From positions 1 through 64,000 of the forward strand of contig JBHHUM010000001.1 in the NCBI GenBank assembly GCA_046861645.1: a stretch of 64,000 nucleotides of DNA, read 5' to 3'. The stretch comes from Fidelibacterota bacterium. GTDB taxonomy: Bacteria; Fidelibacterota; Marinisomatia; Marinisomatales; UBA2128. Shown here piece after piece: positions 1,632 to 32,642 of the stretch. The first letter of the stretch is position 1; each line of letters starts with the position of its first letter. Both the position numbers and the translations under genes were made by a program. The notes beneath the pieces were generated by a model, which saw only the letters and a program-made list of their open reading frames with translations, ran no database searches and was not told the DNA's origin.

Positions 1632-2212
1632 AGAAGCATCTGCACCAGAAAGGATACACCTTAACTGAGATGCTTGTGGCTATGGGACTATTAGGGTTGG
1701 TATTCATCTTTTCCTTAAACTTCGTACGGTTTTCTAACGCGAGGTTTACATTGTGGCATAAAAGAGCTGATGAAGAGATTGATCTTTCCCGGATGCAGAG
1801 AACGATGGTCAATGATATGGCAGAAGGGAGATTTTGCTATCAGCTTGATTCTCTTCTGGTAAATTTATCTACAGATAGTAACCTAATTATCTACACATTC
1901 AAAAATGGGAAGATCCAGAAAAATGGACGTACTGTCATTGATGGTACTTTGGGGATAGATTCGGTACGGTTTGTATTAGACGTGTGGAACACAAAGGAAG
2001 AAAAGATCAAAAAAGTTTTTGCAGACTCGTTGGATAAGTACCTTCAAGAGATGACACCTAATGAAAAAGAATATCTCTTTATCACCAGCTACAGTCTAAA
2101 GATTTTTACCTCAACCATTGGCATCGACTCGAGCCACACCATGCGAAGTCTATTCCCCATCTCAGCTTTTACACCGTTGAAACTCGTTTATAGGGTAAGC
2201 CATGCCGAGTAG
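1628..2212 (+). CDS. Prepilin-type protein (minor pilin/pseudopilin)
   Basis: KG|YTLTEMLVAMGLLG class III signal. Confidence 0.85.
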   Translation: MKKHLHQKGYTLTEMLVAMGLLGLVFIFSLNFVRFSNARFTLWHKRADEEIDLSRMQRTMVNDMAEGRFCYQLDSLLVNLSTDSNLIIYTFKNGKIQKNGRTVIDGTLGIDSVRFVLDVWNTKEEKIKKVFADSLDKYLQEMTPNEKEYLFITSYSLKIFTSTIGIDSSHTMRSLFPISAFTPLKLVYRVSHAE

Positions 2213-3163: not shown

Positions 3164-3178
3164 TGGAGGTATGATACT

Positions 3179-3598
3179 ATGAGACTGAACAAAATAAGAG
3201 CAAAGTATCTGTCGAGTCAGGGTGGGTTTACGTTAACAGAATTGCTAGTCGTCCTGGTGATAATAGGTCTTCTGGTCCTCTTGGCAGTACCAAAGTTCAC
3301 ATCAGTAGTGGGGAAGACCAAGAAGACAGAAGCCAAGTTGATGTTAAACCAGGTGCATGTCCTTGAGGAATCCTATAGAGATGAACATGACCGTTATTCC
3401 CAGGACTTGGAGGAAATCGGCTTTGAACAGGAGAAACTTACAACAGAAGGGGGTAAGGCAAGGTACAAAATTGAGATTGTGGAAGCAGACGATACCTCCT
3501 TCGTGGCCACAGCCATTGCTGTAGTAGATATTGACAGGGATGGTGTAATGGACAAGTGGCAGATTGACCATCAAAAAGAGCTAAAGAACCTGAAATAG
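3179..3598 (+). CDS. Major type IV pilin / GspG-like pseudopilin
   Basis: GG|FTLTELLVVLVIIGLLVLLAVP; C-terminal FVATA..DIDRDGVMDKW; RBS GGAGG upstream. Confidence 0.85.
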   Translation: MRLNKIRAKYLSSQGGFTLTELLVVLVIIGLLVLLAVPKFTSVVGKTKKTEAKLMLNQVHVLEESYRDEHDRYSQDLEEIGFEQEKLTTEGGKARYKIEIVEADDTSFVATAIAVVDIDRDGVMDKWQIDHQKELKNLK

Positions 3599-3793
3599 TA
3601 TCAACATTTATATCTCGTCTAGGGAGTCTGTACTACTGTACACCCACGTCCTTGAGTAATAGATCCTAAACGGAATCAGTCCACTTTCCTTTTTGGTGGA
3701 AAAGCAAGTAAAAAAGACGAAAATAGGTGAACTGTCTAGATTAAAATAACTTCCTAGACACGTCGATAAAATGCGTGTTTCTCTAAGTCTACT

Positions 3794-5296: not shown

Positions 5297-5582
5297 TTAT
5301 TTCCTCACGTATGTTTTATGGTGTTTGTACTTTTATCTGCTGATTCTCAGTTATCAAGGATTTTGTCATGGTCCATTTCTCTTCTATAGTAAACCGAACT
5401 ATTAATAAATTTAAGGACTATCTTAATACTAATCTAAGAATTATTATAAAATTTTATCTAATTATTCTTGAAGTTTAATCTGAGTGTGTGGATTTCCCCC
5501 ATACTTGATACTTGCTTATGAATATCTCTTTTTTCCATTATATCATTTATACTAAAAAAACCAACTCAATTTATGAGTTTTG

Positions 5583-5741
5583 TGTCAGTTAAGTGACAGC
5601 TCCTAATATGTGACAGAAACCAGATACGCCCGAACCAAGCATGTCCTGATTTTGTCACATTTTCTGGGCTTGTTTTTCCAGCTCTTCTTTTGTGACAATT
5701 AAGGTAAACGCCCGGACCAGGCTTGCCTAGAAAGTGTCACA
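5583..5741. promoter_or_regulatory. Cluster of inverted-repeat sites: TGTCA-N6-TGACA plus two 51-bp TGTGACA-N37-TGTCACA units
   Basis: Units at 5609-5659 and 5691-5741 have identical spacing and a shared core (ACGCCCGRACCARGC) at the same offset. Confidence 0.6.
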
Positions 5742-6342
5742 TAAACTGAGCTGTGAATATGAGTATTCTACAACTGATATAATTGTCTTCTTAGTGACGA
5801 GGATAGAGAAGTATAAAAACCTTTTGGTTGAGGAGGATTTTCTGGTTATTCAAGGGGGATACGCTTATTGCCACCCCCATAATACACATTTCACCACCCA
5901 AGAAATACAGCATTTGACAAATTGCGGGGTTCCCTGATATCGAGTATATTGTAATAGATTAAGTTAAATCCTAATGATTGCAAGACCATGAAAATGGCCT
6001 TAGTGAAATAAGCGGAACTGAAGACCCCTTTCGTTAACTTGGGTTCTTGCTCTTTTACCAGCTTAAGACTTGATTGAATTTTCTTGAATAAGTGGCTGGA
6101 TGCACTCAAATTTGAAATAAGATGTCTTTATTGCTAACCATATTCCATTCGTTTATCAGGTTGTTTTGCCTGTTAATACTCACAGAGAGATTGATCGGTT
6201 CCTCCAGGGTTGATGTGACCTTCAGAAAATGGAACAAGACAGCATATGACTTTCATAAAATGATTAGTATGGGTAGAATAGTTAGTAAAACTAAGGCATT
6301 TGAAAGAATTGGACATATATTTAATCTAACTACAAATGCACA

Positions 6343-7539
6343 TTGAAAGAACATTTGCTTGATGCAAATAAATTGAAACTAATAATAACCATAGTAACGA
6401 CAGTCTTCTTTTTTGGGGGCTGCTACAATGAGCCAACTTCACAACATAATGGAGAAGACGGACAGACAGATTCCACAGCCTACCGTTTGTATGCCACATA
6501 TTATAGCAGTAACTATGAAAATGGGGTATTAATTATAGACCCCCTATCTTTAACTGTTTTAGATACCATTCAACTCAATATATCTACATACTTTATAAGG
6601 ATATCCAATGATTCCAACTACTTTTATCTTGGGGAAATATTAGATTTTAGCTTCAATCCACCAACGATAGTTACTAAGGTACATAAATACAATATCGAGA
6701 CAATCGAAGTTATTGACACCTGGGATGTTCCTGGAGATATTATTGAAATGTCAAGTAACGAAAGATATTTATTTATTAATAGTAGTATCGCTGTTGATAC
6801 ATTTTGGGTTTACGACACATATAATAAAGAAATCATATATAAGGATTCTACTTTTCGGGTCTGGGCAAGAGCTTTTGATCCGGATGATTCTGGATTTTAT
6901 GTGATGTATCGTCATGCTGATTCTACGTATGGTACCAATGGGATTTTTCATTTTGACCCAGAAGTTGGACAAATTGACCGATTTTATGAAATAGGAACAA
7001 TACATGAACAACGAGAAATTATTCCCGATGATTTGGTTACAACTCACGATGGAAGTAAGTTGATGTTTACCTATATGACCACTGACCTCTTTAATGATGC
7101 AAGACTTCGTGTTATTAATACGGAGACAGGAGAAATAGAGACTACAATACAGATTAATGGTCAAGCAAAGTTAGCTATTACAAACAATGATGATTATGTG
7201 TACATTGCTGATTCAGGTTTATGGGAGCTGGACGTTTCTCCAAGTGGAATTATTTGCAAATATGACGTAAATAATCAAACAGTAGAATTTTTAATAGATA
7301 TGAAAAATTTCATTGATACTCCACACTTTAATATTTATCCAATTGCAAATCAACCTTTACTTTTTTCAAGGGACAGCTTATTAGCACTATCATCTATATA
7401 TCCTAATACAGATTTTGATTTAATGGTGTGGAATCTCAACAATAAAACACTGATAGGTACACTTCAAATAGATACAACGGAAGTATGGACCAATATCTAC
7501 ACAATGATATTAAAAGAGATATCTATACATACACAATAA
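6343..7539 (+). CDS. Lipoprotein, YncE/YVTN-like beta-propeller
   Basis: Hydrophobic signal ending FFFGG-C; repeated propeller blades (VLIIDPLSLTVLDTIQL, LRVINTETGEIETTIQI); AT-rich. Confidence 0.6.
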   Translation: MKEHLLDANKLKLIITIVTTVFFFGGCYNEPTSQHNGEDGQTDSTAYRLYATYYSSNYENGVLIIDPLSLTVLDTIQLNISTYFIRISNDSNYFYLGEILDFSFNPPTIVTKVHKYNIETIEVIDTWDVPGDIIEMSSNERYLFINSSIAVDTFWVYDTYNKEIIYKDSTFRVWARAFDPDDSGFYVMYRHADSTYGTNGIFHFDPEVGQIDRFYEIGTIHEQREIIPDDLVTTHDGSKLMFTYMTTDLFNDARLRVINTETGEIETTIQINGQAKLAITNNDDYVYIADSGLWELDVSPSGIICKYDVNNQTVEFLIDMKNFIDTPHFNIYPIANQPLLFSRDSLLALSSIYPNTDFDLMVWNLNNKTLIGTLQIDTTEVWTNIYTMILKEISIHTQ

Positions 7540-7601
7540 TTCACATGATATTTTTAAATTGACACAAATATGATAAAAACGAAAATGAGGAGGATATAGT
7601 C

Positions 7602-9827
7602 ATGTCAAGAAACACATTATTATCACTTTTTATATTTTTGTTTCCTTGGGTGCTAATGTCTCAAGATTTCTACTACAGTTTGGATAAGCAAATACCTCTA
7701 ATTGATTCTGAAAACCAAGTTGTGATAATGATTGATGAAACAGATCCCTCAATGGTTAATGATGCAATTGAAAATGTTTGGTTTATTGATGAGTTTAAAT
7801 CAATATTCGCTAGTAGAGGTATCTTTCAATTCAACATATTACAAGGCTTATCTCTGGATGCTGCTGAGATAGAGCTAAATAGGATATTCAATGTTATTAA
7901 AAGAATTCCGGCTTTCTATCAGATTGACTTTAATGGAGATAAGTGGGACATGATCATGGCTGATGAATTTGTAGTAAAATTCGGTCCAGATGTAACTGAA
8001 GAACAGATAATTGCTTTAAACTCAGAACACAATGTAGAAATAATGTCATACAGTCCATGGTTAGGATATCTATTAAGGGTAACAGAGAATTCACAGTTAA
8101 ACGCCCTTGAAATAGCAAACCTCTATTATGAAAATCCACTTACGGTTTGGTCACACCCCAACTTTGTAGCAGAGGTGCGATTTGAACAGATTGAGGATGA
8201 TTTATTCGATAAACAGTGGTACCTCGATGACTCTAATCCAAGCCAGATAGATATTGACGCTGTACGAGCTTGGGGTGTCATAACTGGTAGCTCGGATATC
8301 ATTGTGGGAGTTCTTGATAGCGGTGTCGAAGAACACGAAGACCTTCCGGCAGAAGCACTTGTACAAGGTTACGATGCGGGGACAGGTCTTATTGGAGGAG
8401 GACCAACATCAATTGCTCACAGACATGGACAGTGTGTTGCCGGGATTATTGCTGCAAGACACAATACGATAGGTGTTCGCGGATTAGCAGACAACGTGAA
8501 AATAATGCCCATTCAGATTTTCAACTGGGGAGAAGTGCCACCACCAGACCCTATAAAGCCCAAGGAATTGCAGATGCTATAAATTGGGCATGGCAGCAAG
8601 GTGCCGATATACTTAATATGAGTTTTAAGACTGTTGAATTTGATGTTATTTCGCAATCTATTCGGGATGCTCTCCAGTATGGTCGAGATGGAAAAGGTAC
8701 AATGGTGGTGAAGTCGTCTGGTAACACGGAGGGTGGTGGTGTGACATACCCAGGGACCGTGCCAGGTGTGCTTGTGGTGGGAGCAGTAGACAGGTACGGA
8801 GATCCACAGTATTATACTGCTAGCGACCCGGAGGTAGATGTTGTAGCTCCCAGTTCTGAATACGGTCCTTGCGATTACAATGATATCGGTATATGGTCGA
8901 TCGACCGTGATCCATACGGCTACTCACCGAATTTCTGTGATGAATACCACGGGGACAATGAAGGGAAATACTTCTCTAACTTCACAGGTACTTCAGCAGC
9001 AGCGCCACAAGTTGCAGGCATTGGTGCACTGTTATTGTCATTAGATCCGTCTTTGGAGGCCAGAGCTGTGGGTCCGGACAAAAATCCTGAATTACAAGAT
9101 ATCATCAAAGAATCCGCTATTGATTTAGGAGACTATGATTGGGCTGGGCATGGTCTTGTAAATGCCTACTACGCAGTTGCGCCACCAGCTGCACCTCAGA
9201 ACCTTACGTTGACCAACGAGGGTGGTAACCCCCGTCTCAATTGGGATGCCAATACAGAGCCTGATCTAGACAAATACCATGTATATAAGAGGCTAACGTA
9301 TAATTGCCCACCTACTTGTGATACAGAAAATTTTATGTTCATTACAGACGAAAATACTTACATTGATAATGGATTTGACATTGGTGGCAGACCACCCTTC
9401 GACTTGGCAGAATACTGGATTAAGGCAGTAGATATCGGTGGACAGGAATCGAGTTCTTCAAACTCCGTTATAAAACCAGGGCATCAAACCGCACAGTGGA
9501 AAGAGTTGGTTGAAATGGCTCCCAATGTTCCGGAGGATTATAATCTTTCAGCAAACTCTCAATCCATTCAACCCTGTCACCACAATCCGCTACGATTTGC
9601 CAGAGGTTTCTCATGTCTCTCTGGTGATTTATGATATTCTTGGAAGAGAAGTACGCACACTCCTTGACAACAGAGAAGATACGGGGTTTAAGCGTGTAGT
9701 CTGGGATGGTAAGGATAATAGTGGGAATATAGCTTCTGCTGGGATTTACATCTATGCACTGAGAGCATGGTCACAAGAGAGTGAGAAAACATATCACAAA
9801 ACCCAGAAGATGGTGTTGTTGAGATGA
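7602..9827 (+). pseudogene. S8 subtilase with FN3-like and FlgD/T9SS-type C-terminal domain, two frameshifts (~8550, ~9558)
   Basis: Triad VGVLDSG / HRHGQCVAG / GTSAAAP split over ORFs 7602-8582 and 8432-9634; C-terminal NPFNPVTTIRYDLP..WDGKD..KMVLLR in ORF 9510-9827. Confidence 0.85.
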
Positions 9828-17972: not shown

Positions 17973-18042
17973 AGGTGATACCATCGATCTTGACTATCCG
18001 TAAGCCCTCGACTAAATTCATCTGTTAAACACGGAGCTGGAA

Positions 18043-18408
18043 ATGGGAAAGATAAGACTGAACCAGATGTTGTTTTATGGATACCATGGAGCGGATGAAT
18101 CCGAGCAATCCCGCGGAGGAACATTTGAGGTGGATCTTGAAATAGATACGCATATTCGCGATGCCGCAGAATCGGATCATCTTGAAGATACCATTAACTA
18201 TGCCGATGTTTATTCTACTGTCCATGATTCTCTTACATCCAAAAAGCATTATCTCCTTGAATCCCTGGCCCAGGAAGTGGCTGATGCCATCATGAAGAAA
18301 TTTCCTATCAATGCTGTGAAAGTAAACGTACGCAAACCTCATGCACCGGTAAAAGGTGTGATCGGAAGTGTGGAAGTAGAAATCGTGAGAAACAGGAGTA
18401 ATGACTGA
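18043..18408 (+). CDS. folB: Dihydroneopterin aldolase
   Basis: FYGYHG, TINYA, LLESLA, KPHAP. Confidence 0.93.
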   Translation: MGKIRLNQMLFYGYHGADESEQSRGGTFEVDLEIDTHIRDAAESDHLEDTINYADVYSTVHDSLTSKKHYLLESLAQEVADAIMKKFPINAVKVNVRKPHAPVKGVIGSVEVEIVRNRSND

Positions 18409-18913
18409 ACCTGTAACAGTTTTCCTTAGTCTGGGATCGAATTTAGGAGACCCTTTTTTTCAAGTGGAGCGGGGGATAGACACAATGAACTATCATCCTT
18501 TAATTTCTATCAGGAAAGTTTCTCCATTTTATCGTACAGAACCAGTAGAAGCCCCCGGGCAAGCTGAATACATTAATTGCGTCGTGGAACTTTCTACCTC
18601 CCTCGATCCTCAATCTCTACTTGAAGTCTGCCATGACGTTGAAGAACAATCAGGACGAATTAGGGGATCTCTGAAAAATTCTCCCCGCACTTTGGATATG
18701 GACATAATTTTTTATGGTGGTCATCTAATTAAAGAAGAGTCCCTTACAATACCTCACCCACGCTATGCCCAGCGCCGTTTTGTATTGGAACCCTTAGTGG
18801 ATATTGCTCCTGACTTTATCTGTCCAGACAGCGATTTATCAACTTCAGAAGCCTTGCAGCGTTGTGAAGATTTCTCCCGTGTTGAGCTCCTCGAGCCAGA
18901 GGATATTTCGTGA
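18401..18913 (+). CDS. folK: HPPK (2-amino-4-hydroxy-6-hydroxymethyldihydropteridine diphosphokinase)
   Basis: LSLGSNLG, PRTLDMDI, IPHPR, RRFVLEPL. Confidence 0.95.
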   Translation: MTEPVTVFLSLGSNLGDPFFQVERGIDTMNYHPLISIRKVSPFYRTEPVEAPGQAEYINCVVELSTSLDPQSLLEVCHDVEEQSGRIRGSLKNSPRTLDMDIIFYGGHLIKEESLTIPHPRYAQRRFVLEPLVDIAPDFICPDSDLSTSEALQRCEDFSRVELLEPEDIS

Positions 18914-19551
18914 GAAATCTTTATTCTGTTGCCATAGAAGGAGTAATAGGTGTTGGCAAGACAAGCCTGGCTCGACTTTTAGCTGACCATCTTGATGCCA
19001 AATTGATTCTTGAAAAATTTGAAGAAAATCCTTTTCTTCCGGATTTTTATCGTGATCCTGAACGCTATGCTTTTCAAACACAACTCTTCTTTTTATTAAG
19101 CCGTTATCGTCAGCAACAGGAAATTCGGCAAACAGATATGTTCCATAAATTGATTATCTCAGACTATATGTTTGAGAAAGACCGGCTCTTTGCTTCATTA
19201 AATCTTGATGACAACGAAATGACTTTATACGATTCAGTAGCAAACCTGCTCCAGAGAAATGTTATTCCCCCTGATCTGGTTATCTATCTGCAAGCAGATA
19301 CCACTACATTGATGAAGCGAATCCGCTCCCGGGAACGGGATTTTGAAAAAGCTATCTCATCAGATTATATTGACGCCCTCTCTCAGGTTTATAATGAATT
19401 CTTTTTCCGTTACGAATCAAGCCCTTTACTGATAATTAATACTAACGATATCGATTTTGTAAATAATAAAAATGATTTGGAAGAGGTAATCCGCTACATC
19501 AGACAACCAGTGAGTGGAACCAAATTCTACAATCCCGCAGCGCAACTGTGA
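18910..19551 (+). CDS. Deoxynucleoside kinase
   Basis: IEGVIGVGKTS; FQTQLFFL; follows folK. Confidence 0.9.
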   Translation: MRNLYSVAIEGVIGVGKTSLARLLADHLDAKLILEKFEENPFLPDFYRDPERYAFQTQLFFLLSRYRQQQEIRQTDMFHKLIISDYMFEKDRLFASLNLDDNEMTLYDSVANLLQRNVIPPDLVIYLQADTTTLMKRIRSRERDFEKAISSDYIDALSQVYNEFFFRYESSPLLIINTNDIDFVNNKNDLEEVIRYIRQPVSGTKFYNPAAQL

Positions 19552-19736
19552 CTTTTTTCAGACTACTCCTGATCGCAGGTATCGCTTATGCTGTTTATGG
19601 TTTGTTGAAGTTTCTTTTTCCCACTTCTCAAGAAAAAATTAATTCCAAAACTTCAGGTCGAAGAAAAAGGAAGATTGATATTAATGATGCGGATGTCCGT
19701 GACGCCGATTTTCATGATATTGATGATGAAAAGTAA
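19548..19736 (+). CDS. Small single-TM hypothetical protein
   Basis: Overlaps both neighbours; N-terminal TM, acidic tail. Confidence 0.6.
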   Translation: MTFFRLLLIAGIAYAVYGLLKFLFPTSQEKINSKTSGRRKRKIDINDADVRDADFHDIDDEK

Positions 19737-20173
19737 TGGTAATTGGACCCCAAATAACTCGTCTTAGGTTTCCAGAATATCTGGATATCGGATTATTAAT
19801 AGTACGCGTTTGTACTGGAGTAGTGTTTATGTATCATGGTTATCCTAAAATGTTTGGGGGGATCATCGCTTGGGAAAAATATGGTGCCCTGGGAATGAGT
19901 AGTATTGGCGTCGACTTTTTCCTCCCTTTTTGGGGATTTATGGCCGCATTTTCAGAATTTATAGGTGGTTTGTTCCTCCTATTTGGTTTATTCTCTAGAC
20001 CAGCTCTAATCCTGATTTTTTTAACCATGTTTTTTGCTGTTCTGTATCATATAAACTCTGGCAAAGGTAGCCCGGTCTCGGCCATGCAATGGATTGCCAT
20101 TACAACTGCTCTTTTCTTAGCTGGCTCAGGCAAATACAGTCTTGACTATCTGTTAGTCAATAAAACTTTATGA
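19736..20173 (+). CDS. DoxX family membrane protein
   Basis: LIVRV..HGYPK; EFIGGL; GSGKYSLD. Confidence 0.88.
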   Translation: MVIGPQITRLRFPEYLDIGLLIVRVCTGVVFMYHGYPKMFGGIIAWEKYGALGMSSIGVDFFLPFWGFMAAFSEFIGGLFLLFGLFSRPALILIFLTMFFAVLYHINSGKGSPVSAMQWIAITTALFLAGSGKYSLDYLLVNKTL

Positions 20174-24036: not shown

Positions 24037-25332
24037 ATGTGTGATACTTTTGTTGTCACCCCCTCTGCCACAGCGGATGGGTCCACAATCTTTGGTAAGA
24101 ACAGTGATCGTGAACCCAATGAAGCTCAGGTGCTGGAGTATCATTCAGCAAAGAATTTTCCTGAAGGAGAATTTGTCCGCTGCACCCATATCGAGATTCC
24201 CCAGGTAAGTGAAACTTTTGGTGTTTTACTTAGTCATCCTTTTTGGATGTGGGGTGCTGAGATGGGAGTAAACGAACGGGGGGTAGTCATAGGCAATGAA
24301 GCCGTTTGGACCAAAATGCCCCTGTCACGAGAAAGAGGGTTGACCGGAATGGATTTATTACGGTTGGCCCTGGAGCGTAGTCCTTCTGCTGAGCGGGCTC
24401 TGGAAGTCATAACCGATTTACTGGCCGAACATGGTCAGGGAGGTGTCTGTGGATATGAAGACCGGAAGTTGACCTACCATAACAGCTTTATCATAGCTGA
24501 TCTAAGCGAAGCCTGGGTGCTGGAAACCGCGGGTTCACTCTGGGCAGCCAGGAGGGTAAAAGAAATGTATTCCATCAGCAATGGTCTGACTATTGGTGAG
24601 CAGTTTGATTTAAGTCACCCTTATCTAATAGAGATAGCCCTGCAAAAAGGGTGGTTGAAGCGGGGCAGGACTTTTAATTTTGCAGATTGTTACGCTGACT
24701 GGTTTTACCATACTTTTACGGCCTGTCGACCTCGGCGCAGACGTTCGAAAAAGCTATTGGTGGAGGAGCAACCATTTGAGGTCAAGGGGGCTTTTGCTCT
24801 TCTACGGGATCACGGGGGAGAAAAACTTTACCGACCGGATCGCCATTTTCTTATGAATCACCTCTGTGCTCATTCAGCCAATACTCTTTCTCGTCATGCT
24901 ACGCAATCTACTGCATCGTTGGTGGCACACCTTTCCTCCCAGGCGATAACCGTTTGGGTTACTGGTACTTCAGCCCCGTGTACAGGGATTTTCAAACCTC
25001 TCAGCTTGGATGGAAGTGAATTCCCTGATTTCGGTCCGAAACCTGAAGGGAAATACAATCCTGAGACATTGTGGTGGCGACATGAGAAACTCCACCGTGC
25101 CATGCTCCTCGATTTTCCTTCTCGACTGGCTACAATTCATCAGGATAGAGAACAGTTGGAAACAAACTGGTTGGAAAACCCACCTCATACTTCTGTAGCA
25201 TTTCAAGAGTCCTTAGCACTGGAAGAAGAATGGTTGGAGAGAATCAGTACCATACCAGTAAAGGAGAACGTCAAGTTAAGTTATCGACGCTACTGGCGGA
25301 AACAGAATCAAAAGGCAGGGATAAGTGTTTAA
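24037..25332 (+). CDS. C69-family dipeptidase / secernin-like Ntn hydrolase
   Basis: N-terminal MCDT; GKNSDREPNEAQ; WMWGAEMGVNE; GMDLLRLALER. Confidence 0.9.
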   Translation: MCDTFVVTPSATADGSTIFGKNSDREPNEAQVLEYHSAKNFPEGEFVRCTHIEIPQVSETFGVLLSHPFWMWGAEMGVNERGVVIGNEAVWTKMPLSRERGLTGMDLLRLALERSPSAERALEVITDLLAEHGQGGVCGYEDRKLTYHNSFIIADLSEAWVLETAGSLWAARRVKEMYSISNGLTIGEQFDLSHPYLIEIALQKGWLKRGRTFNFADCYADWFYHTFTACRPRRRRSKKLLVEEQPFEVKGAFALLRDHGGEKLYRPDRHFLMNHLCAHSANTLSRHATQSTASLVAHLSSQAITVWVTGTSAPCTGIFKPLSLDGSEFPDFGPKPEGKYNPETLWWRHEKLHRAMLLDFPSRLATIHQDREQLETNWLENPPHTSVAFQESLALEEEWLERISTIPVKENVKLSYRRYWRKQNQKAGISV

Positions 25333-25382
25333 GTGACAACAAGTTTACCAACCTCTTTCAGCAAATTTTAAATGAAAATCTA

Positions 25383-25482
25383 TAATAACGACCAAGCTCA
25401 GCAGCAGGCGAAAGTGGCGCGTAATTTTGTATTGTGAAAAATAACGATGCTTTTGGCTGTCCGCTGGAGCGCCTTGTTAGCT
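25383..25482 (-). repeat. attC site (after GNAT cassette)
   Basis: Minus strand: R'' AGCTAAC (overlaps stop), L'' GCTCCAGC, L' GCTGAGC, R' GTTATTA; hairpin with extrahelical base. Confidence 0.85.
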
Positions 25483-25893
25483 TCTGATATTTTGTTCACG
25501 ATCAAGTATCCAGCATCTTTTATTATTCGTAAACCCAATATGCTCATAGTATGAATTTGCTGCTGGGGCAGCAACCAAGATTAATTTGCATTGAGACCCT
25601 AATTGCTCCTGAGTTATGACCAGCAATTTCTTACCGATGCCTTTTTTCTGATGATTTTTATGAACAGCAAGATCAGAAAGATAACAAGCATAGTGGAAAT
25701 CTGTCATTGAACGTGCAACACCTATCAATTTATCTCCCAGCCATGCTGTTACTATTAGGTTGCTGCTTTCCACCATTCCTTCCATACAATTCCGGTCATG
25801 AATTGGTCTTCTCTTGCCAAGAGTAGATTCACGGAGCAGCTCAATGAATTGATCTGCTGTTACAGGGGTATTGATTTTGTATTCTATGCTCAT
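25477..25893 (-). CDS. GNAT N-acetyltransferase (integron cassette 3)
   Basis: LSDLAV..HQKKGIGKKL; YYEHIGF; core site GTTAGTT at 25913-25907 just upstream of the RBS. Confidence 0.88.
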   Translation of the reverse strand: MSIEYKINTPVTADQFIELLRESTLGKRRPIHDRNCMEGMVESSNLIVTAWLGDKLIGVARSMTDFHYACYLSDLAVHKNHQKKGIGKKLLVITQEQLGSQCKLILVAAPAANSYYEHIGFTNNKRCWILDREQNIRS

Positions 25894-25913
25894 GGATTCC
25901 TTTGGGAACTAAC

Positions 25914-26286
25914 GATATCTATGTTCCTCTTTGCCAGCATGATGTAAGATCTCTTTGACATCCTGATGGGAGGTCAGGTAAGCACCACACACTGTAAAGG
26001 GGAACGGTCATGGCTAATCACAACTCTCTCATAGAGAAACGTCGATTTGTTAAAGGAAAACTAATCATCGGGATTGATCCTGCCAATGATAAACGCAAAG
26101 TTCAGATAGTCTACAATTACGGTATACCGTTGGGGAGGTCATTTTCTTTTCCCAACACATACAAAGGAGATCACACTATTTTGTGGAAACGGGTAAGAAG
26201 ATATCTGACAGATGAAGTATACTGGAAGCCGGCTTTAATCTTTGCCGTAAAGACAACCTGCGACTTTTAGATCACAGTATATCTAT
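25914..26286 (+). mobile_element. IS110-family remnant (structured non-coding end + truncated DEDD transposase 26010-26270) lying within an attC
   Basis: LIIGIDPA..GRSFSFPNTYKG..FAVKTTCDF* resembles the IS110 RuvC-like N-terminus; ATATCTAT repeated at 25915-25922 and 26279-26286. Confidence 0.7.
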
Positions 26287-26365
26287 AGACCACAGAGCTC
26301 GAGACGAGCAACCAACCTTTAATTTCGCACAGCGCACCGCTGTAAAGTACAGCCAATGGTTAGGC
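26287..26365 (-). repeat. attC site, interrupted (R''/L'' half)
   Basis: Minus strand GCCTAAC-CATTG-GCTGTAC shortly after the cassette-2 stop; complementary to TTAGGC at the start of the same cassette. Confidence 0.7.
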
Positions 26366-26397
26366 AAATTAATGATTATTAAATTCTATTTCTCCTC

Positions 26398-26892
26398 TTA
26401 AGGAGTAAATCGATAGATATAACCTATATTGGCACTTGGAACAAAAGGATCATCTGCTAAATTACCCAGGTTATCTTGTAAGATCCTTGCTATCCCTAAT
26501 TCTAAAAATAATCCTCGATATCCCAAGATAGAAAAATTCAGACCATATGCAATTCCAGTATAAGCAAAATCATAATCAGCGCCTGGATCACTCCCAACAT
26601 ATCTCCCTGCTAAAAGATTTATACTTTGTTGAGTTTTTTCATTATCTGACAGCTTAAATCCAAGATTTAGCATCATTTGATTGTCAGTTTTATTAAGATA
26701 ATATTGTGATAAGCGAAGACCAGTTCTTTTATACCAATAACCAAGGTTAATACCAGATGTTGTAAAACCAAGCTCAGGATATGAAGTTTCTTTTAAATCT
26801 CTCTGATTACTCTTCTCATCAGCCCATATGTCGCTAGTTCCAAAAAGTACAAAAGCAAAAATAAAAAAGATAAAATACTTTTTCTCAACCAC
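26398..26892 (-). CDS. Hypothetical exported protein, possible small beta-barrel (integron cassette 2)
   Basis: Signal peptide; alternating beta-strands; terminal NIGYIYRF. Confidence 0.65.
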   Translation of the reverse strand: MVEKKYFIFFIFAFVLFGTSDIWADEKSNQRDLKETSYPELGFTTSGINLGYWYKRTGLRLSQYYLNKTDNQMMLNLGFKLSDNEKTQQSINLLAGRYVGSDPGADYDFAYTGIAYGLNFSILGYRGLFLELGIARILQDNLGNLADDPFVPSANIGYIYRFTP

Positions 26893-27171
26893 TTATTCCT
26901 GATTAATATTCTCCAATAACTTTTTTCAGAAGCTTGCTCTATCATGTCATTTATATTCATATTAATACTCCCCGAATCAGAGATTTCCCAGATCAAAATC
27001 TTGTAAGTTACTAAATTGCGAAAATCCTTTATGTAAATGAAGAATACGTATTATCATTTCTTTGCTAAGGATTTTGCGCTTGGTATCGTTTCATCTTCCA
27101 ATTCATTTGGATGATAAACACTCAAATATCCAATTATAACTCTTATTTCCCCTTGTTCTTGTTCAAATTAC

Positions 27172-27304
27172 GCCTAAAGGAAAAAGTAACCTGCACAAAC
27201 TTGACTATACTTTTGTAGAACACTTAACAAAATGGTTTCCAAATATCTTTAATTTTCAAAATCACGCTGTCATCATTTCAGGTCGGGTTGAGTGTGGGTT
27301 ATAT
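27172..27304 (-). repeat. attC site (after RM cassette), degenerate
   Basis: Minus strand R'' ATATAAC, L'' ACTCAACC, L' GGTTACT, R' TTTAGGC (GTT crossover G replaced by T). Confidence 0.7.
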
Positions 27305-27315
27305 TTTCCTGCTTT

Positions 27316-28095
27316 TTAGATGTCAATTTTGGTATCAGCTATTTCTTTGATTTTATCTGCAATGCTATTTTTGTAAGTTTTGCCGATGTTATCAAAAAGT
27401 TCCAATAATTCGACAAATGTATTATCCCCACCAAGATAATCCCAAAACTGTTCACCAATTAAGAAATCTTCACCAGGTTTTAACAGTCCTTGAAGTGTGA
27501 ATCTTTCGTAAAGATCGGGATGATAAGGGTTATATGGAAAAGCCAAAAACACCTTCACATATTTCCTTCTTCTAGCAATCCATTCCAAGAGTTTTGCCTT
27601 TGATTTTGTGAATACATCAATATTTGGTTTAACGGTTTTTATTTCAAAATACTGTTCAATCCCGTTTCGTTTCATATAAAAATCTGCTATACGACCTTCT
27701 TTTTGTACTTTACCATTTGAAGGATCTGCATTTAAAACTTCTTGGGTTTCTTTTTCAATATTTGATTCACGATCACCATTTCTTAATTCTCGAATTATAT
27801 TATCAATTACAGATTTTTGATTTCGTGAAATAACTCCGCCAATATCATATTTTGTAAAACATTCTTCAGTGCTTTCATTCGTAATAATCTTTGACACATC
27901 TTCATAAATTGACATTCCAAGTGTTGTTGCAAGAGAATGAATAAAAGAATATGCTGCCACCTTTTCCTTGTCCTGCATTAACTTGACAAGAAATGGCATT
28001 GATGTGGATTCTCTTGCGTATCTTTGTAGTTTTGCATCTAATTTAGAGGACAGAAGATCAGTAATTAGTTGTTTTTGACCATTAGTTAAACTCAA
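27316..28095 (-). CDS. Type II restriction endonuclease, TdeIII/MjaII-like
   Basis: SLATTLG; ADF..EIKTVKPN PD-(D/E)XK motif; AFPYNPY; FWDYLGG; coupled to the MTase. Confidence 0.8.
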   Translation of the reverse strand: MSLTNGQKQLITDLLSSKLDAKLQRYARESTSMPFLVKLMQDKEKVAAYSFIHSLATTLGMSIYEDVSKIITNESTEECFTKYDIGGVISRNQKSVIDNIIRELRNGDRESNIEKETQEVLNADPSNGKVQKEGRIADFYMKRNGIEQYFEIKTVKPNIDVFTKSKAKLLEWIARRRKYVKVFLAFPYNPYHPDLYERFTLQGLLKPGEDFLIGEQFWDYLGGDNTFVELLELFDNIGKTYKNSIADKIKEIADTKIDI

Positions 28096-28096
28096 A

Positions 28097-29518
28097 TCAG
28101 TTACCCTTTTTCTTCATATAAAAAATTGTTTCTTGATATGCATTATTCCCTTGTTCAGTTCTTTTTGTTACTGCACGATGATGCTCTTTTACAATTGTCA
28201 ATCCACTTTTTTCTGCGATAGTAGGATAAAGGTTAAACCTATCATTTGCCACAATAAATATTTTAGCATCATCTTTCAAATACTTATTCATATTGCTGAA
28301 TACAGCAGATATTCCATTCACATAATTTTCTTTTGCCTTAATCGATTTTCCTGATTTTTTAGGACCAATTTCTTTATCATCGTATCTTTTAATTCCAAAT
28401 AATTCATAAGCGTAAATATGTTGTTCGTGATAATCAATTTGTCCCACATAAGGCGGGGAGGTATAAATACCATCGTATTTTTTATTGCCAATCGGTGAAT
28501 TTTTCAATTTTTCCAAAAGGTTGATTTTTGTTGAATCACCTTGTATAACTGAAATTGATCTATCCGATCGCAATTTATTAAATTGTTTAATTCTTCTTAC
28601 TGTGTCCATACCATAATTATGAATTTTCACTAAAAGTTGTTCAATAGGTTTACAGTATTTGTTATGTTTTCTGCACCAATATTCTTTTCCCGGTTCAACT
28701 GGTTTCTTTGGAGTTGCTAAATCGTAATGAGGGACGAGTCTTGAAGAACGGGTTGCACGACTTAATAAAACTGATAGTAAATCCTGATAATAAAATTCTT
28801 TGATTAATCGTTTGTAATACATCATTTCAAAAAGCGTCCGTTCAGCAAACCAGGTTTTAAGATACTCACTTGTAACACCAGCTAATAGAGATTTTTTTAG
28901 TTCATCCATTTTTTCTTCGGGAAAAAGTTGGATTTGTTTTGGGTCATTTGTTATCAAACGATTACTAAATCTTGTAAGACGATTTTCTGCTTCTAACACT
29001 TCATTTTTTAATTTATATAAATCATATTTATTTGTTTTGACTTTTGCGATTCGACAATTGAATTCAGAAATATCAACACCAATTGTATGAATTTTTAATT
29101 CGTTACCTTGGACAAGAGTTGTTCCTGAACCCATAAAGGGATCAAGAACAATTTCATTTTCTTTAAAATATTTGATGAGAAACCACTCTACTAATTGAGG
29201 AATAAATTTCCCCAAATATGGATGAAGTCGATGAACGTGTTTTGTCCGCTCACGTTCGGGAAGATTATAGAAACCGAGTTCTGCGTTTAAACCGGCTCGG
29301 TGGTGATGTGAGTTTCCTTGCTCAATTAGTTTAAGAAAGGTTTTTAATTCCTTCAAAGAAACTCGAAGTTCACCATTTTTGGCTTTTCTTTTGATAAGTT
29401 TACCATCAGGTGTGTATTTTCCAATCCGTTTGTAATCAATATAATAGCGAATATTGTGGACAGTTTTCCCAACTATCTCTGCCGCTTCTGAAATTGTTAA
29501 AAGGTCAGAATGAATCAT
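28097..29518 (-). CDS. Amino-methyltransferase (likely m4C) with N-terminal HTH
   Basis: LTISEAAEIVGKT HTH; HPYLGKFIPQ; motif I DPFMGSGTT before motif IV TSPPY. Confidence 0.9.
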   Translation of the reverse strand: MIHSDLLTISEAAEIVGKTVHNIRYYIDYKRIGKYTPDGKLIKRKAKNGELRVSLKELKTFLKLIEQGNSHHHRAGLNAELGFYNLPERERTKHVHRLHPYLGKFIPQLVEWFLIKYFKENEIVLDPFMGSGTTLVQGNELKIHTIGVDISEFNCRIAKVKTNKYDLYKLKNEVLEAENRLTRFSNRLITNDPKQIQLFPEEKMDELKKSLLAGVTSEYLKTWFAERTLFEMMYYKRLIKEFYYQDLLSVLLSRATRSSRLVPHYDLATPKKPVEPGKEYWCRKHNKYCKPIEQLLVKIHNYGMDTVRRIKQFNKLRSDRSISVIQGDSTKINLLEKLKNSPIGNKKYDGIYTSPPYVGQIDYHEQHIYAYELFGIKRYDDKEIGPKKSGKSIKAKENYVNGISAVFSNMNKYLKDDAKIFIVANDRFNLYPTIAEKSGLTIVKEHHRAVTKRTEQGNNAYQETIFYMKKKGN

Positions 29519-29617
29519 TAATTCTTCAATTTCCCTTTAAATCTACATTCCAAAGATAATAAAACCATTTGAATTAAGAAGTATCGTATCCTGAATTTTA
29601 TAAAGAAATTTCTGGAA

Positions 29618-29649
29618 ATATAACTCGTCAATAAATGGAAATATTTCCA
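29618..29649 (-). other. attI site (core GTTATAT)
   Basis: Core at 29624-29618 is the exact complement of R'' ATATAAC of the first attC; lies between the first cassette and the 5' end of divergent intI. Confidence 0.75.
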
Positions 29650-29700
29650 CTATATCACCCTTATAGACTGGAAATTATTCTTTATAATATTATCCATTAC

Positions 29701-29729
29701 TTGAAAAGAAGGAAAATATCCTGTAAGTT
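29701..29729 (+). promoter_or_regulatory. Candidate intI promoter
   Basis: TTGAAA-N17-TAAGTT. Confidence 0.4.
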
Positions 29730-29845
29730 ATCCATATATTTAATTAACTCCTCTATAATGATGAAATCTACCAGAATAGCATTTGGAAAACAAGAAAAAA
29801 ACCTTACCCCTGTACGCCCCTGCCTTGTCGGCAGACAGACAGCAG

Positions 29846-30901
29846 ATGGGTAAATTCCCTCCAGACACTGAACTGTACACAGCACACAACGTCCTGCGGA
29901 CATCCTATGGGGAGCTGATGGATCAGGTCCGGCAGGTACTGCGTTATCACCATTACGCCTACCGTACCGAGTTGACTTATTGTAATTGGATTGTTCGCTA
30001 TATAAAGTTCCATGGCAGCAAAAAGCATCCTCGTGATATGGGCAAGTGTGAAATTGAATTATATCTCCATCATCTTGCTGAGGATAAGGATGCTTCGGTG
30101 GCGACACAAAGGCAGGCTCACAATGCCATTATCTTTCTCTATGATCAAGTTCTTTGTTTTCCAGTCAGTGAATCTATTGAACCGGTCAAAGCAAAGCAGC
30201 AGCGTCATTTACCGGTTGTGATGACTCAAGAGGAAGTGAAGTTGGTTCTCAACCAGATGTAGAGGTATCATTTAATGATGGCGAAGCTACTGTACGGAGG
30301 CGGTCTGCGGTTAATAGAGTGTATCCGACTGAGAATTGGAGATCTCGATTTTGAAAGGAACCGGATCAATGTCCGGGGTGCCAAAGGAGGTAAAAATCGT
30401 CTGACCTTATTCCCACAGTCAATCCAGGAGGAGTTACGAATTCATATAGCAAAAGTAAAACAATTACATGATCAGGATTTAGCTGAAGGATACGGCAGTA
30501 CCTATCTTCCTCATGCGTTAGCTAAAAAGTACCCCTACGCTGCCAAAGAGTTGACTTGGCAGTATCTGTTCCCAGCAAAAAAATTAAGTGAAGATCCACG
30601 AACAGGAATCATACGTCGGCACCATGTAATGGAATCCGGGTTACAAAAAGCCGTCATGGCTGCAGTGTCTCGAGCGGGCATTACAAAACGAGTTAGCTGT
30701 CATACTTTTCGTCACTGTTTTGCTACTCACTTATTAGAAAATGGTGTCAATATTCATGCTGTCCAAGAGTTGATGGGGCATAAAAGTATAAAGACAACTG
30801 AAATTTATACTCATGTCATGGAAAAGGAACTTGAGGAAACTCGCAGTCCTTTGGATATACTGGGAGAAAGAGAAAACGATATACTTGACGAGAAGAAATA
30901 G
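29846..30901 (+). pseudogene. intI: Integron integrase with in-frame TAG at 30260-30262 (start uncertain, 29783 or 29846)
   Basis: LRYHHYAYRTE..Y..WI; GLRLIEC; KGGKNR; IntI patch DLAEGYGSTYLPHALAKKYP..WQYLFPA; HTFRHCFATHLLE; GHKSIKTTEIYTHV; both halves in one frame. Confidence 0.93.
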
Positions 30902-30968
30902 CCTTCCAGAAAGATAAGAACATACCTGTCTTATTAAGATTGTCACCTGTCTACCACCAACTTATACT

Positions 30969-31070
30969 TGAACCATAATTTTCCTAATTTAGAGGATTTT
31001 CAAGATTACTTAATCAGGTTAATCATTGTAGTCCTTGTCATCCCTGTCTATCGGTAGGCAGGAGGGTTCA
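30969..31070. repeat. Degenerate palindromic (MITE-like) element with a nested CCTGTCTATCGGTAGGCAGG palindrome
   Basis: TGAACC...GGTTCA ends, GATTA/TAATC centre; nested 20-mer at 31043-31062 resembles 29819-29838. Confidence 0.5.
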
Positions 31071-31313
31071 GGCAGTTTGAGGATTATCATAGAGCTGGCT
31101 ATTTCGACCTGGCAGGACTTTTCCGATCGGCCTGGTTTGCTGCCATTGTAACCCGTTTACGTTTTCTTTACGACTGACGGGTTGCCACCAGCTAACTGCC
31201 AACTATCAACTGTACTGGTTGTTGTCTTCTCTATAATTCCCAATGTCAATATATCTTGCACCTCTCTGACGCTCTCGACTAAATTTGTTAGCTTTTCTCG
31301 AAACGGAAACGGT

Positions 31314-32642
31314 ATGTTCACACTTTTACAGGAAAAATTTGGTATTATCCTCCGCAACCTGAGGGGTCTGGGGAAGATTTCTGAGAAAAATATCTCGGAA
31401 ACTAACCGTCTGATACGGCGGGCGCTTTTAGAGGCTGATGTGAATCTCCAGGTCGTGAAAGATTTTGTTACCTCGGTGGAGGAAAAGGCTCACGGATTAA
31501 CGGTAACCAAATCGGTTACACCCGGTCAACAGTTTACCAAGATCATTCATGATGAATTGACTGATCTACTGGGCAGGGAAGTAGCACCTCTAGTCTTTGC
31601 ACCCAAGCCTCCCACGGTAATTTTATTGGCCGGGCTCCAAGGATCTGGGAAGACCACCACGGCAGCAAAGTTGGCTAATAACCTGAAGAAGGAAGGTCGA
31701 CAACCCTACCTGGTAGCGGCGGATGTGTATCGTCCTGCAGCAGTGGAACAGTTGCAGACCCTCGGCCGGCAGATTGAGGTTCCCGTTTGGACTGAAGACC
31801 GTGATCCTGTTGCTATTTGCCGGAATGGTATGGATGAAGCCAGACGTCAATCATACGATGTGGTCATTCTTGATACGGCCGGTCGTCTCCATGTGGATAG
31901 TGAGATGATGGAAGAGATTGTAGACATCGCCGATGTGACGAAACCTACGGAGATACTTTTCGTAGCGGACGGGATGACCGGTCAGGATGCAGTACACTCT
32001 GCCCAGGCTTTTGCTCATGCTCTGGAGATTACCGGATCGATATTGACAAAACTCGATGGCGATGCCCGGGGAGGTGCAGCAGTTTCTATTGCCGCTGTCA
32101 CCGGTAAACCCATTAAGTTTATTGGTGTTAGTGAAAAGATGAACGGTTTGGAGATATTCTATCCGGATAGAATGGCTGGTCGTATCCTGGGTATGGGTGA
32201 TATTGTCACCTTGGTAGAAAAGGCACAGGATGTAGTAGCTCGGGAACAGTCAGCCCAAACGGCAGAGAAATTATCACAACAAAAGTTTACACTGGAAGAT
32301 TTTCAGGAGCAACTCCATCAGATGCAAAAGATGGGTTCTCTCGACCAGCTTATGGGAATGATACCCGGCTTGGGGAAACTGACTAAAAATATGGTATTGG
32401 ACGAAAAAAAGCTGGTATGGACAGATGCCATTATCTATTCCATGACTCCAGAGGAGCGACATAACCCGGTGATTATTGATGGCAGCCGCAGAAAAAGAAT
32501 TGCCCGGGGTAGTGGCAGGTCTATTCAGGAAGTGAACAGTCTCCTGAAACAATTCGGACAGCTTCAGAAAATGATGAAGACTCTCTCCCGGTCGAAAAGG
32601 AACCGTAAGATGATGGGACAACTAAACAGTATATTTAACTGA
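31314..32642 (+). CDS. ffh: Signal recognition particle protein
   Basis: GLQGSGKTT, DTAGR, TKLDGDARGG, M-domain; start moved to ATG 31314. Confidence 0.97.
   Translation: MFTLLQEKFGIILRNLRGLGKISEKNISETNRLIRRALLEADVNLQVVKDFVTSVEEKAHGLTVTKSVTPGQQFTKIIHDELTDLLGREVAPLVFAPKPPTVILLAGLQGSGKTTTAAKLANNLKKEGRQPYLVAADVYRPAAVEQLQTLGRQIEVPVWTEDRDPVAICRNGMDEARRQSYDVVILDTAGRLHVDSEMMEEIVDIADVTKPTEILFVADGMTGQDAVHSAQAFAHALEITGSILTKLDGDARGGAAVSIAAVTGKPIKFIGVSEKMNGLEIFYPDRMAGRILGMGDIVTLVEKAQDVVAREQSAQTAEKLSQQKFTLEDFQEQLHQMQKMGSLDQLMGMIPGLGKLTKNMVLDEKKLVWTDAIIYSMTPEERHNPVIIDGSRRKRIARGSGRSIQEVNSLLKQFGQLQKMMKTLSRSKRNRKMMGQLNSIFN

Follow-up and report, generated by a model that had tools for sequence, protein, structure and literature searches.

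A decaying three-cassette chromosomal integron, and the stub of an attC-targeting IS110 element, in a Fidelibacterota genome

The locus of interest occupies positions 25,383–30,901 of a 64,000-nucleotide stretch of DNA (hereafter, the window) from a Fidelibacterota bacterium, and was described in an initial annotation as a complete chromosomal integron, frozen by three independent lesions and in the process of domestication. Two questions arise: (i) is this a true integron, and (ii) if so, is it dead, locked in place by selection, or simply on its way out? The answer that we favour, with a probability of roughly 0.78, is that the locus is a short sedentary integron being lost step by step.

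The three-cassette array and its integrase gene form a real chromosomal integron of an ordinary kind, and one in decay: the integrase is a true IntI, and two of the attC sites are disabled. All of the paired motifs reported for the array are present on the minus strand—GTTATAT (29624) with ATATAAC (27304), TTAGGC (27177) with GCCTAAC (26365), and GTTAGTT (25913) with AGCTAAC (25482), the last pair with one mismatch. A covariance model was trained on 24 attC sites taken from relatives, none of them from the window. Across the 64 kb it gave two matches at E<=5, each after a co-oriented cassette gene: attC3 (40.1 bits) and attC1 (34.1 bits). The model does not detect attC2 in the window, which is expected because that site is split and partly deleted. 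A hairpin heuristic scored attC3 (20.2), left attC1 unscored, and gave 18.0 to a hairpin in the left end of the insertion sequence (IS) described below; the covariance model was therefore used. The folding energies of attC1 and attC3 are not significant alone (z -0.76 and -0.59), and Rfam yields a single match over 25000–31500, at chance level. The cassettes recur in other arrays: the restriction-modification (RM) cassette in genomes G132 and G104, and the GNAT cassette in G105 and G124.

The integrase gene, intI (29783..30901, plus strand), has 372 codons with one in-frame TAG, and is the sole intI in the genome. Its product scores 414 bits against model TIGR02249 (cut-off 265; model positions 1–314 covered), while the XerC and XerD models score it below their cut-offs. 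A quick tree places it within the integron integrases and away from the Xer-type proteins of the same genome, and both the catalytic R-K-H-R-H-Y residues and the IntI insertion can be read from its translation. The start codon is TTG (ATG in 4/5 relatives), and the 5' end carries two short in-frame insertions.

The attI site (29618..29650, minus strand; left limit approximate) was placed using relatives' intI loci. Similarity to five such loci of G005 and G020 ends exactly at the G|TT crossover (G at 29624), after which each locus enters a different first cassette; a 14-bp palindrome (29636–29649) adjoins the crossover, and attI looks intact. The conserved block between attI and intI (29621..29807, 75–88% identical to relatives) probably holds the promoters Pc and PintI; a promoter scan of the block returned three promoter-like sites where 2.4 are expected, none of them a clear Pc.

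Cassette 1, on the minus strand like the two that follow it, holds two genes. The first encodes an intact 473-aa DNA methyltransferase with an N-terminal HTH (28097..29518; PF01555), 86% identical to a protein of equal length in the G132 integron; the second encodes an intact 259-aa TdeIII-family type II restriction endonuclease (27316..28095; PF09520), with identities of 87% in G132 and 86% in G104. Judged by these family matches, the nuclease and methylase genes are a predicted type II RM pair. That the pair is a cassette is supported by its GTTATAT start, shared with the G132 array, and by a 91%-identical copy in the sample: at 29623 exactly, this copy departs from the window and gives way to an attC-like right arm. 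The layout is that of TdeIII-family systems (PF09520), with a family endonuclease and a methylase gene upstream, one difference being an N6/N4-type methylase that carries an HTH. GGNCC, the TdeIII recognition site, is the most depleted of seven motifs tried (observed/expected 0.85, against 0.90–1.07), a weak hint of cleavage and methylation at that site. By the standard integron mechanism, the RM cassette would have been the last to be acquired. The cassette's attC site, attC1 (27172..27304, 133 bp), carries a T at the crossover base, 27178, which breaks a C–G pair; the three informative homologous attC sites of relatives all have G (a fourth row is uninformative), and the G>T change listed in the initial annotation is borne out. 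In the IntI1 assays reported in PMC2811028, changing the first GTT base in only one partner site cuts recombination 10^3–10^4-fold. By analogy, the T at 27178 should block recombination of attC1 with GTT partners.

Cassette 2 encodes a 164-aa protein (26398..26892, minus strand) with homologues but no match in Pfam or NCBIfam; by eye, its start resembles a signal peptide, and a 285-bp leader precedes it. The gene has DNA homologues in G054 and G176, while G000:C47 holds a broken paralogue. Of its attC site, attC2, two minus-strand pieces are left: a left arm containing R'', L'' and part of the loop (26292..26365, inner limit approximate; placed using the attC family beside intact IS copies), and the R' box (25907..25913, placed by motif position), which is also the start of cassette 3. 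Between them, on the plus strand, lies the left-end stub of an IS110-family element (25914..26291), delimited by comparison with relatives and consisting of a ~96-bp left end and ~93 decayed codons; the transposase lacks its 3' three quarters, and neither the guide RNA nor the right end survives. The stub itself has no Pfam match, and its family placement is by the 45% identity, over 82 aa, of its 86-aa ORF (26010–26270) to the full IS110 transposase P0001. The remnant recognized in the initial annotation is thus present, but comparison with intact copies indicates that the lesion arose in two steps: the element first inserted, and part of it was later deleted along with the L' box and spacer. 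At 63–65% DNA identity to intact copies, with stops and a deletion, the stub appears to be old and the element dead in the window. Across three runs, the contig covering 25909–27208 differs by 0–2 letters and no more than a single gap. A scan of genome contigs with the stub gave one weak match, and promoter scans, at chance level, lend no support to an outward promoter in the stub.

Cassette 3 carries an intact gene for a 138-aa GNAT acetyltransferase (25477..25893, minus strand; family models), on which no resistance-family model reaches its cut-off. The DNA of this gene is 91% identical in G105, and a homologue sits beside intI in G124. The array ends with attC3 (25383..25482, minus strand), intact as first described, the arms of which are shared by other contigs in the sample.

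Together, these features suggest the following order of events. Firstly, an active IntI would have gathered three cassettes at attI; the anatomy is as described above, and the order is our reconstruction. Secondly, an IS110 element—RNA-guided, to judge from covariation in its intact relatives—entered attC2 antisense to the array, with a single base separating it from the crossover; most of the IS, together with the L' box, was then lost in a deletion of about 1.5 kb. Comparison shows both the insertion point and the deletion. Thirdly, attC1 gained the G>T change at its crossover base, with the effect carried over from IntI1. With attC1 and attC2 disabled, the three cassettes thus became a single block of ~4.2 kb, flanked by an intact attI on one side and an intact attC3 on the other. 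This block may be retained in part because losing it would deprive the cell of methylase and nuclease at once. Fourthly, and most recently, a nonsense allele of intI arose, which coexists in the sample with an intact allele (seen in a single contig, from one run); where the intact allele persists, cells could still acquire cassettes at attI. The attC damage looks older than the intI stop.

Could selection have favoured the lesions because they hold a useful or addictive RM cassette in place? This is possible but doubtful. In its favour, both RM genes are intact. In G132, an independent insertion by an IS of this clade has broken the attC of the orthologous RM cassette, and in the sample a copy of the cassette follows an attC-like arm with an A at the crossover (one loose end). 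Locking-in of this kind has been proposed for Xanthomonas (PMC12444791). Against this, G104 carries the same cassette with an intact attC, so that the site is broken in two of three genomes, and G132 is rich in this IS (three left ends, two right ends). Given the intact G104 site, there is no support for attC loss as a rule among RM cassettes; among 17 loci with a TdeIII-like gene, an attC match lies directly after the gene only in the two closest orthologues. At the C69 locus of the congener G003, a methylase and partner of a different kind are retained in the absence of intI, a point in favour of locking-in, but the attC match there is weak (17.4 bits; E 0.24 in one search, 0.009 in another). 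With the queries used, neither G001 (90% complete) nor G002 (83% complete) yielded a match to C69, intI or attC. In the one congener with the C69 gene, this gene is on a different contig from ffh and is followed by other genes, making the association with ffh raised in the initial annotation incidental. Selection to keep the cargo, implied by the term domesticated, is therefore a stronger claim than these comparisons carry, and stepwise loss remains our preferred reading.

A second alternative is that the integron is a fossil, dead throughout the population. The stop codon, at intI position 160 (30260..30262), is where the initial annotation placed it. It is polymorphic across contigs from four runs (X1–X4) of one vent sample: those of X1, X2 and X4 have the stop, while an X3 contig, the one contig on which this allele rests, has a Gln codon. 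Presence of the stop in three of the four runs favours a fossil, with the Gln contig coming from a sister strain or an assembly chimera; contigs cannot phase alleles, and no sample piece spans the array to join the Gln allele to the broken attC sites. However, the Gln contig is 99.6% identical to the window over 1223 bp (five differences), continuing through intergenic DNA towards ffh, and two of its further differences restore consensus residues (L165 and D205); a sister strain at 99.6% identity is, in practice, the same population. Two other run variants, R72C and A200T, depart from the IntI consensus. A population-wide fossil is accordingly improbable.

The history of intI is consistent with a recent loss. 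Its dN/dS is 0.095–0.105 against the four nearest integrases, a rough figure because dS (1.25–1.58) is near saturation; a value of about 0.1 points to long purifying selection. The window's IntI has 14 private changes and a longer branch (0–6 changes in its four nearest relatives). Relaxed selection was considered and rejected: four changes fall at columns conserved at >=90%, within the range of intact relatives (up to seven in 31 comparison integrases). Intact intI genes are the usual state, with a stop in only 2/45 over-cut-off matches from 233 genomes. Frozen therefore overstates the case, because one of four runs reads Gln and dN/dS is about 0.1; attI and attC3 look intact besides. The lesions are present in the runs' contigs, but the intI stop is not fixed in the sample.

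The element behind the attC2 stub can be followed in its intact relatives. By sequence, the stub belongs to a clade of ~444-aa IS110 elements, members of which carry a DEDD RuvC domain (PF01548) and PF02371. The left-end motif occurs at 27 places in 13/307 genomes (control, 0). Polar decay, in the sense of left stubs outnumbering right ends, is not claimed, as the count covers five genomes with patterns of differing strictness. The clade inserts one base from the GTT crossover of attC, beside the R' box and antisense to the array. Across 64 distinct left flanks, the last four bases read T (57), A (60), A (61) and C (46). When empty sites were rebuilt by script, 13/24 scored as attC hairpins, against 0.8% of shuffles; the other 11 did not, and the covariance model matched the right-end flank in only 8/51 loci, four of these at E>0.1.

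Downstream of the transposase gene, intact relatives encode a putative RNA with a predicted two-loop fold. Its guides change in step with the two ends of the element and with the target flanks on either side. Guides match in 27/27, 36/36 and 24/24 cases, with a further 21/33 against 7.4 when shuffled, and compensatory changes affect 25/28 predicted RNA pairs; these counts ignore relatedness, and the variant elements are few (three for the left target, six for the left donor). In this right-end RNA, one loop would recognize attC by pairing with its R' and L' boxes, and the second would pair with the ends of the element itself. The L' box matched by the right target guide is 2–7 nt away from the end of the element, whereas the register of IS621 is fixed. 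The IS in these relatives most likely works as a bridge/seek-RNA recombinase. It would excise as a circle, the junction of which would form a promoter with its -35 in the right end and its -10 in the left end, 18 bp apart; a promoter scan found no IS promoter above chance.

These guides bear on whether the attC1 change is itself tied to the IS, as an imprecise-excision scar or an escape from the guide, in which case the lesions would not be independent. The changed base directly flanks the insertion point and corresponds to the last base of the left target guide, the attC family of attC1 is a proven IS target, and relatives with T or A at that base carry matching guides (3/27). Yet attC1 retains no IS sequence, two A-type relatives appear, by eye, in REP-like repeats rather than attC, and a single-base point mutation requires no special cause. 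We regard such a tie as slightly less probable still than the fossil, and retain stepwise loss with an ordinary point mutation at attC1. Among the matches listed, contigs of all four runs break at 27179–27208, beside the changed base; a G allele at 27178 may exist in the sample. That the lesions are assembly or binning artefacts of the metagenome-assembled genome is very improbable, for despite mixed alleles and graph forks in the sample, the stop is present in contigs of 3/4 runs, the stub, cassette 2 and the T at 27178 share one contig in both X1 and X3 (the T lying 30 letters from the contig end), and overlapping contigs link the locus to both flanks.

How does this integron compare with known systems? 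Inactivated chromosomal integrons are common, and the integron itself is a member of this known phenomenon. Xanthomonas retains its array behind an intI broken by a stop codon (PMC12444791, and Gillings 2005 as cited there), and V. cholerae has CALINs behind pseudogenised integrases (PMC13108822). The window shares with them an intI stop and a retained array with defence cassettes, including RM; it differs in having only three cassettes, in coming from an uncultured vent lineage, and in the co-occurrence of stop and intact allele in one sample.

The nearest counterpart of the IS is the IS1111-attC group, comprising ISPa21, ISKpn4, ISPst6 and ISPa25 (Tetu & Holmes 2008 and Post & Hall 2009, via citing papers; PMC11187229). 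Both are IS110-superfamily DEDD recombinases that sit at a fixed attC position antisense to the array, with a long non-coding region downstream of the gene and the top-strand guide 5' of the bottom-strand guide. However, IS1111-type transposases are given as 330–350 aa (PMC11187229), and clade proteins measure 441–478 aa against 347 aa for ISPa21, with about 20–26% identity over part of the protein. With ISPa21 and IS4321 as the IS1111 references, the tree separates the clade from IS1111-attC at 100/100 and 100/99. Sub-terminal inverted repeats of 7–17 bp are described for IS1111 elements (PMC11208160), 13 bp in ISPa21, whereas the clade has a short imperfect end-motif match (by eye) and no long repeat. 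The landing points also differ: the clade inserts beside R' at the crossover, and ISPa21 between R'' and L'', at the other attC end (one ISPa21 copy compared). With the bridge-RNA recombinases IS621 and ISCro4 (PMC11208160; PDB 8wt6, 9t56), the clade shares a two-loop RNA with target- and donor-matching guides, here predicted. Sequence similarity to them is weak (E 4e-7 and 2e-3), and the clade differs in a right-end location of the RNA, a longer protein, and the variable 2–7 nt between the element end and the box matched by the right target guide.

On balance, we lean towards the view that the stub represents an undescribed, widespread lineage of long IS110-type RNA-guided recombinases. Such a lineage would have reached attC independently of IS1111-attC and would insert one base from the IntI crossover. 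It would read R' and L' as two separate boxes, skipping a spacer between them that varies in length, and much of the integron decay in bacteria of the deep sea and of sediments would be its work.

Decayed chromosomal integrons being common, the integron alone carries little weight. Intact and nonsense intI alleles in one sample, above older attC damage, do however offer a testable order of decay in a wild population. The newer element is the IS lineage, probably an undescribed variant of a known attC parasite: it would represent an independent origin of attC parasitism with a different landing point, and its guides, reprogrammed in nature, can be deduced from sequence data. If true, its two-box guide would handle degenerate targets, unlike fixed-register bridge RNAs; and if the variable spacing between the core and the right guide is real, it would bear on the spacer tolerance of bridge/seek RNAs and on the design of programmable recombinases.

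The integron region, at 25.4–30.9 kb of the window, is flanked by a C69 peptidase gene and ffh and is AT-rich, with 31–36% GC at 26–30 kb (versus about 42%) and a GC skew that is flipped across it. Its source genome is 2.5 Mb in size and 94% complete; the source sequence is present in four sequencing runs (X1–X4) from one hydrothermal-vent sample. Further AT-rich stretches of the window, at 1–8000 and 18000–20000 (5–8 kb at 32–37% GC), may be additional islands.

The claim of the initial annotation that this region is an integron is upheld. Read through its single TAG, the ORF at 29783–30901 scores 414 bits against TIGR02249 (cut-off 265) and falls under the cut-offs of both the XerC and the XerD models; in a phylogenetic tree its product groups within the integron integrases of the same order (closest relative: 78% identity). 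It is the only intI copy in the genome, and intI scores over the cut-off in 35 of 233 genomes of the order. One relative, G005, carries six integron integrases over the cut-off (contigs C13, C50, C54, C57, C65 and C71), and also six IS left-end copies.

We place attI at 29624, because five intI loci of the relatives G005 and G020 share an upstream block and diverge exactly at the crossover, past which the first cassette differs at each locus. A covariance model was built from 24 attC sites of relatives' arrays, with the window's sites and the three closest homologues of attC1 left out. It matched two sites in the 64-kb window—attC3 (40.1 bits), as intact as had been proposed, and attC1 (34.1 bits)—and one further site in the rest of the genome; attC2, the remaining proposed site, was not among the window matches. 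Folding energy by itself gave no significance for attC1 or attC3. Two motifs kept in five relatives, a 14-bp palindrome adjoining attI (29636–29649) and an inverted motif in the attI–intI block (about 29710–29740), are candidate integrase or regulator sites. Short palindromic REP-like insertions occur at 29813–29845, 29872–29910 and 31040–31062, and at two further loci (L016:4081–4104 and L032); some lie in frame within intI and the IS110 gene, and they are present in some relatives and absent from others. A crude REP-like pattern gave 10 matches in the genome versus 3 in a reversed control.

Cassette 1 encodes a DNA methylase and a TdeIII-like nuclease, both intact; it is 86–87% identical to a cassette of the relative G132, with a GTTATAT start in both, and has another counterpart in G104. 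Cassette 2 encodes a 164-aa protein of unknown kind behind an unusually long, 285-bp leader (26893–27177) with stop-interrupted frames, perhaps the decayed 5' part of a gene. The product of cassette 3 is a GNAT protein with homologues in G105 and G124; over 25593–25911, a more abundant organism of the sample also carries a GNAT gene, about 90–95% identical and in another context. Upstream of the G132 RM cassette lies a three-gene cassette (L217:1221–4335, on G132:C64) with, by eye, kinase-like, vWA-like and PP2C-like genes, an arrangement resembling TerY-P triads.

The array had been described as frozen by three lesions, the first of them an in-frame TAG in intI. The TAG is present in contigs of X1, X2 and X4 (among the matches listed), but it is not fixed: an X3 contig spanning 30044–31266, with five other letters and no gap, has a Gln codon in its place, which makes 'frozen' too strong a word. 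The remaining four differences on that contig are L165 (21/31 relatives), D205 (30/31), G125, where the column is variable, and a silent one. A mixed picture comes from the other 5'-end variants of intI, E44K lying towards the consensus and R72C and A200T away from it. Since contigs keep a single bubble path, and yet runs of the same sample chose differently, these data suggest that the stop and Gln alleles are both common in the sample. With respect to the four nearest integrases, dN/dS is 0.095–0.105 (dS being near saturation), and the window's IntI, on a longer branch, has 14 private changes versus 0–6. It departs from the residue kept in ≥90% of sequences at 4 columns; the 31 integrases compared with it do so at up to 7. 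An intact intI is usual in the order, a stop being found in only 2 of 45 over-cut-off matches among the 233 genomes. Given the Gln allele, the low dN/dS, the few conserved-column changes and the rarity of stops elsewhere, loss of intI is probably recent.

The second lesion, a G>T change at the attC1 crossover (27178), is confirmed and is the derived state, with GTTA at three homologous sites. Among the matches listed, the T is found on X1 and X3 contigs, only 30 letters from the contig end. Assembly breaks at 27179–27208 in all four runs, and therefore this attC1 arm has a second neighbour in the sample. In IntI1 assays, changing the first GTT base in one partner only lowers recombination 10^3–10^4-fold (PMC2811028).

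The third lesion, an IS110 remnant in attC2, is also present, but as the outcome of two events rather than one, an insertion and a later deletion. The left end begins at 25914, one base off the crossover G; the stub shares 63–65% DNA identity with intact IS copies up to about 26290, where the similarity jumps into the attC2 loop. Judging from the size of intact elements, about 1.5 kb was lost, including the attC2 L' box and the guide RNA, which the stub lacks. Among the matches listed, the stub contig differs by 0–2 letters in three runs, with no more than one gap. As IS decay is advanced and the contig near-uniform across these runs, we infer that the attC2 lesion is the oldest of the three. 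The three cassettes are left as one 4.2-kb block, with an intact attI on one side and an intact attC3 on the other. The ribosome-binding site of the transposase gene lies within a hairpin formed by the IS left end (25920–26005; z -1.7); close relatives preserve the pairing, and the hairpin may silence read-through transcripts. At a distance from any intI, a lone degenerate attC (34.6 bits) holds a second same-clade copy, full-length but frameshifted (G000:C107:25905–27426; L016:3906–5427). At L040:1499–1602 (G130:C79), two IS left ends joined back to back form an inverted repeat of 100 bp, with a cassette start on either side; recombination or misassembly could have produced it.

In intact relatives of the stub, the encoded protein is 441–478 aa long and carries PF01548 and PF02371; at E≤0.001, matches numbered 407 proteins. 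A search of 307 genomes of the class for the 19-base left-end motif found it 27 times, in 13 genomes, versus 0 for the control; by eye, about half of these are stubs at cassette starts. Our locus set comprises 79 metagenome and 13 genome loci: 92 with a match, 70 with the left-end motif and 64 with distinct flanks. Across these 64 left flanks, the final four positions are mostly T, A, A and C, in 57, 60, 61 and 46 cases respectively, with T in another 13 at the last position. A conserved motif, mostly 380–500 nt past the stop codon, closes the right end; beyond it come the spacer and L' box of an attC. Of 24 empty sites rebuilt by script, 13 scored as attC hairpins, versus 0.8% of 480 shuffles; on right-end flanks, which are without the R' box, the covariance model (default filters) gave matches at 8 of 51 loci, with weak matches at 4 of these. 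In one subclade (L108–L112, L114, L126, L156 and L159) the left flank ends in T, not C, and the right end does not fit the closing motif. Two members with changed guides (L153 and L154), seemingly in REP-like repeats rather than attC by eye, appear to be natural reprogramming of the guide. Were the element circularized with one G shared between its ends, their junction would create a promoter with -35 and -10 boxes spaced by 18 bp.

A full right end was present in 40 elements; guides were parsed in 36 of these, and 4 were dropped. In match tests that ignore the relatedness of elements, (i) the left target guide matches the base preceding the element in 27/27 (shuffle mean 21.5), (ii) the right-end 5-mer matches its guide in 36/36 (25.5), and (iii) the left-end 3-mer matches its guide in 24/24 (11.0). 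For a further guide, a match of 5 nt or more to the L' box was seen in 21 of 33 elements (shuffled: 7.4), at 2–7 nt from the element end; here, three rows were dropped and three with a mis-picked window were scored as misses. RNAalifold, applied to 16 of the parsed elements, predicts a two-loop guide RNA: two hairpins, one loop holding the target guides and the other the donor guides, with compensatory change in 25 of 28 predicted pairs.

IS1111-attC elements are already known (PMC11187229, PMC3001079 and PMC11616780). The first of these sources gives 330–350 aa for IS1111 and 395–455 aa for the IS110 subgroup, and a downstream non-coding region for some IS110 members; its supplementary tree may already contain a member of the clade. 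The ISPa21 copy that PMC6739498 and PMC7232449 report for pME-1a could be located; its record annotates it as IS110 transposase only. This single copy encodes 347 aa and has 13-bp inverted repeats, in contrast to the 441–478 aa of our clade, and lies between R'' and L'', at the opposite attC end from the clade's crossover site; identity is about 20–26% across part of the protein. A tree of 19 proteins, with long branches and few references, recovers the clade as monophyletic (100/100), groups it with long IS110-type proteins (96/90) and pairs ISPa21 with IS4321 (100/99). Within the texts reached by our literature search, mostly outside subscription journals, we found no long IS110 at an attC crossover and nothing on integrons of this phylum. 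The stub is the remains of an element that probably represents a novel variant of an attC parasite type already known.

The lesions bear out the proposed decay, but not the proposed domestication: the attC of the orthologous RM cassette is broken in G132, by an IS right end of the same clade at the same base, but intact in G104. Selection to retain the RM cassette is possible. In the congener G003, the C69 gene is followed by another kind of methylase, from PF02086, and its partner gene, by a weak match (17.4 bits) resembling attC and by 72 bp that match the DNA directly after the window's intI; no intI was found at that place, and C69 and ffh are not neighbours. This thin evidence is consistent with an old integron locus in which decay has gone further. 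Elsewhere, Xanthomonas integrases are inactivated by stops and deletions while arrays are stable (PMC12444791), and in V. cholerae pseudogenised integrases lie ahead of CALINs (PMC13108822). RM genes are over-represented among cassettes (10.1101/2024.07.02.601686). The integron described here is unremarkable: it is decaying but, across its population, not yet dead.
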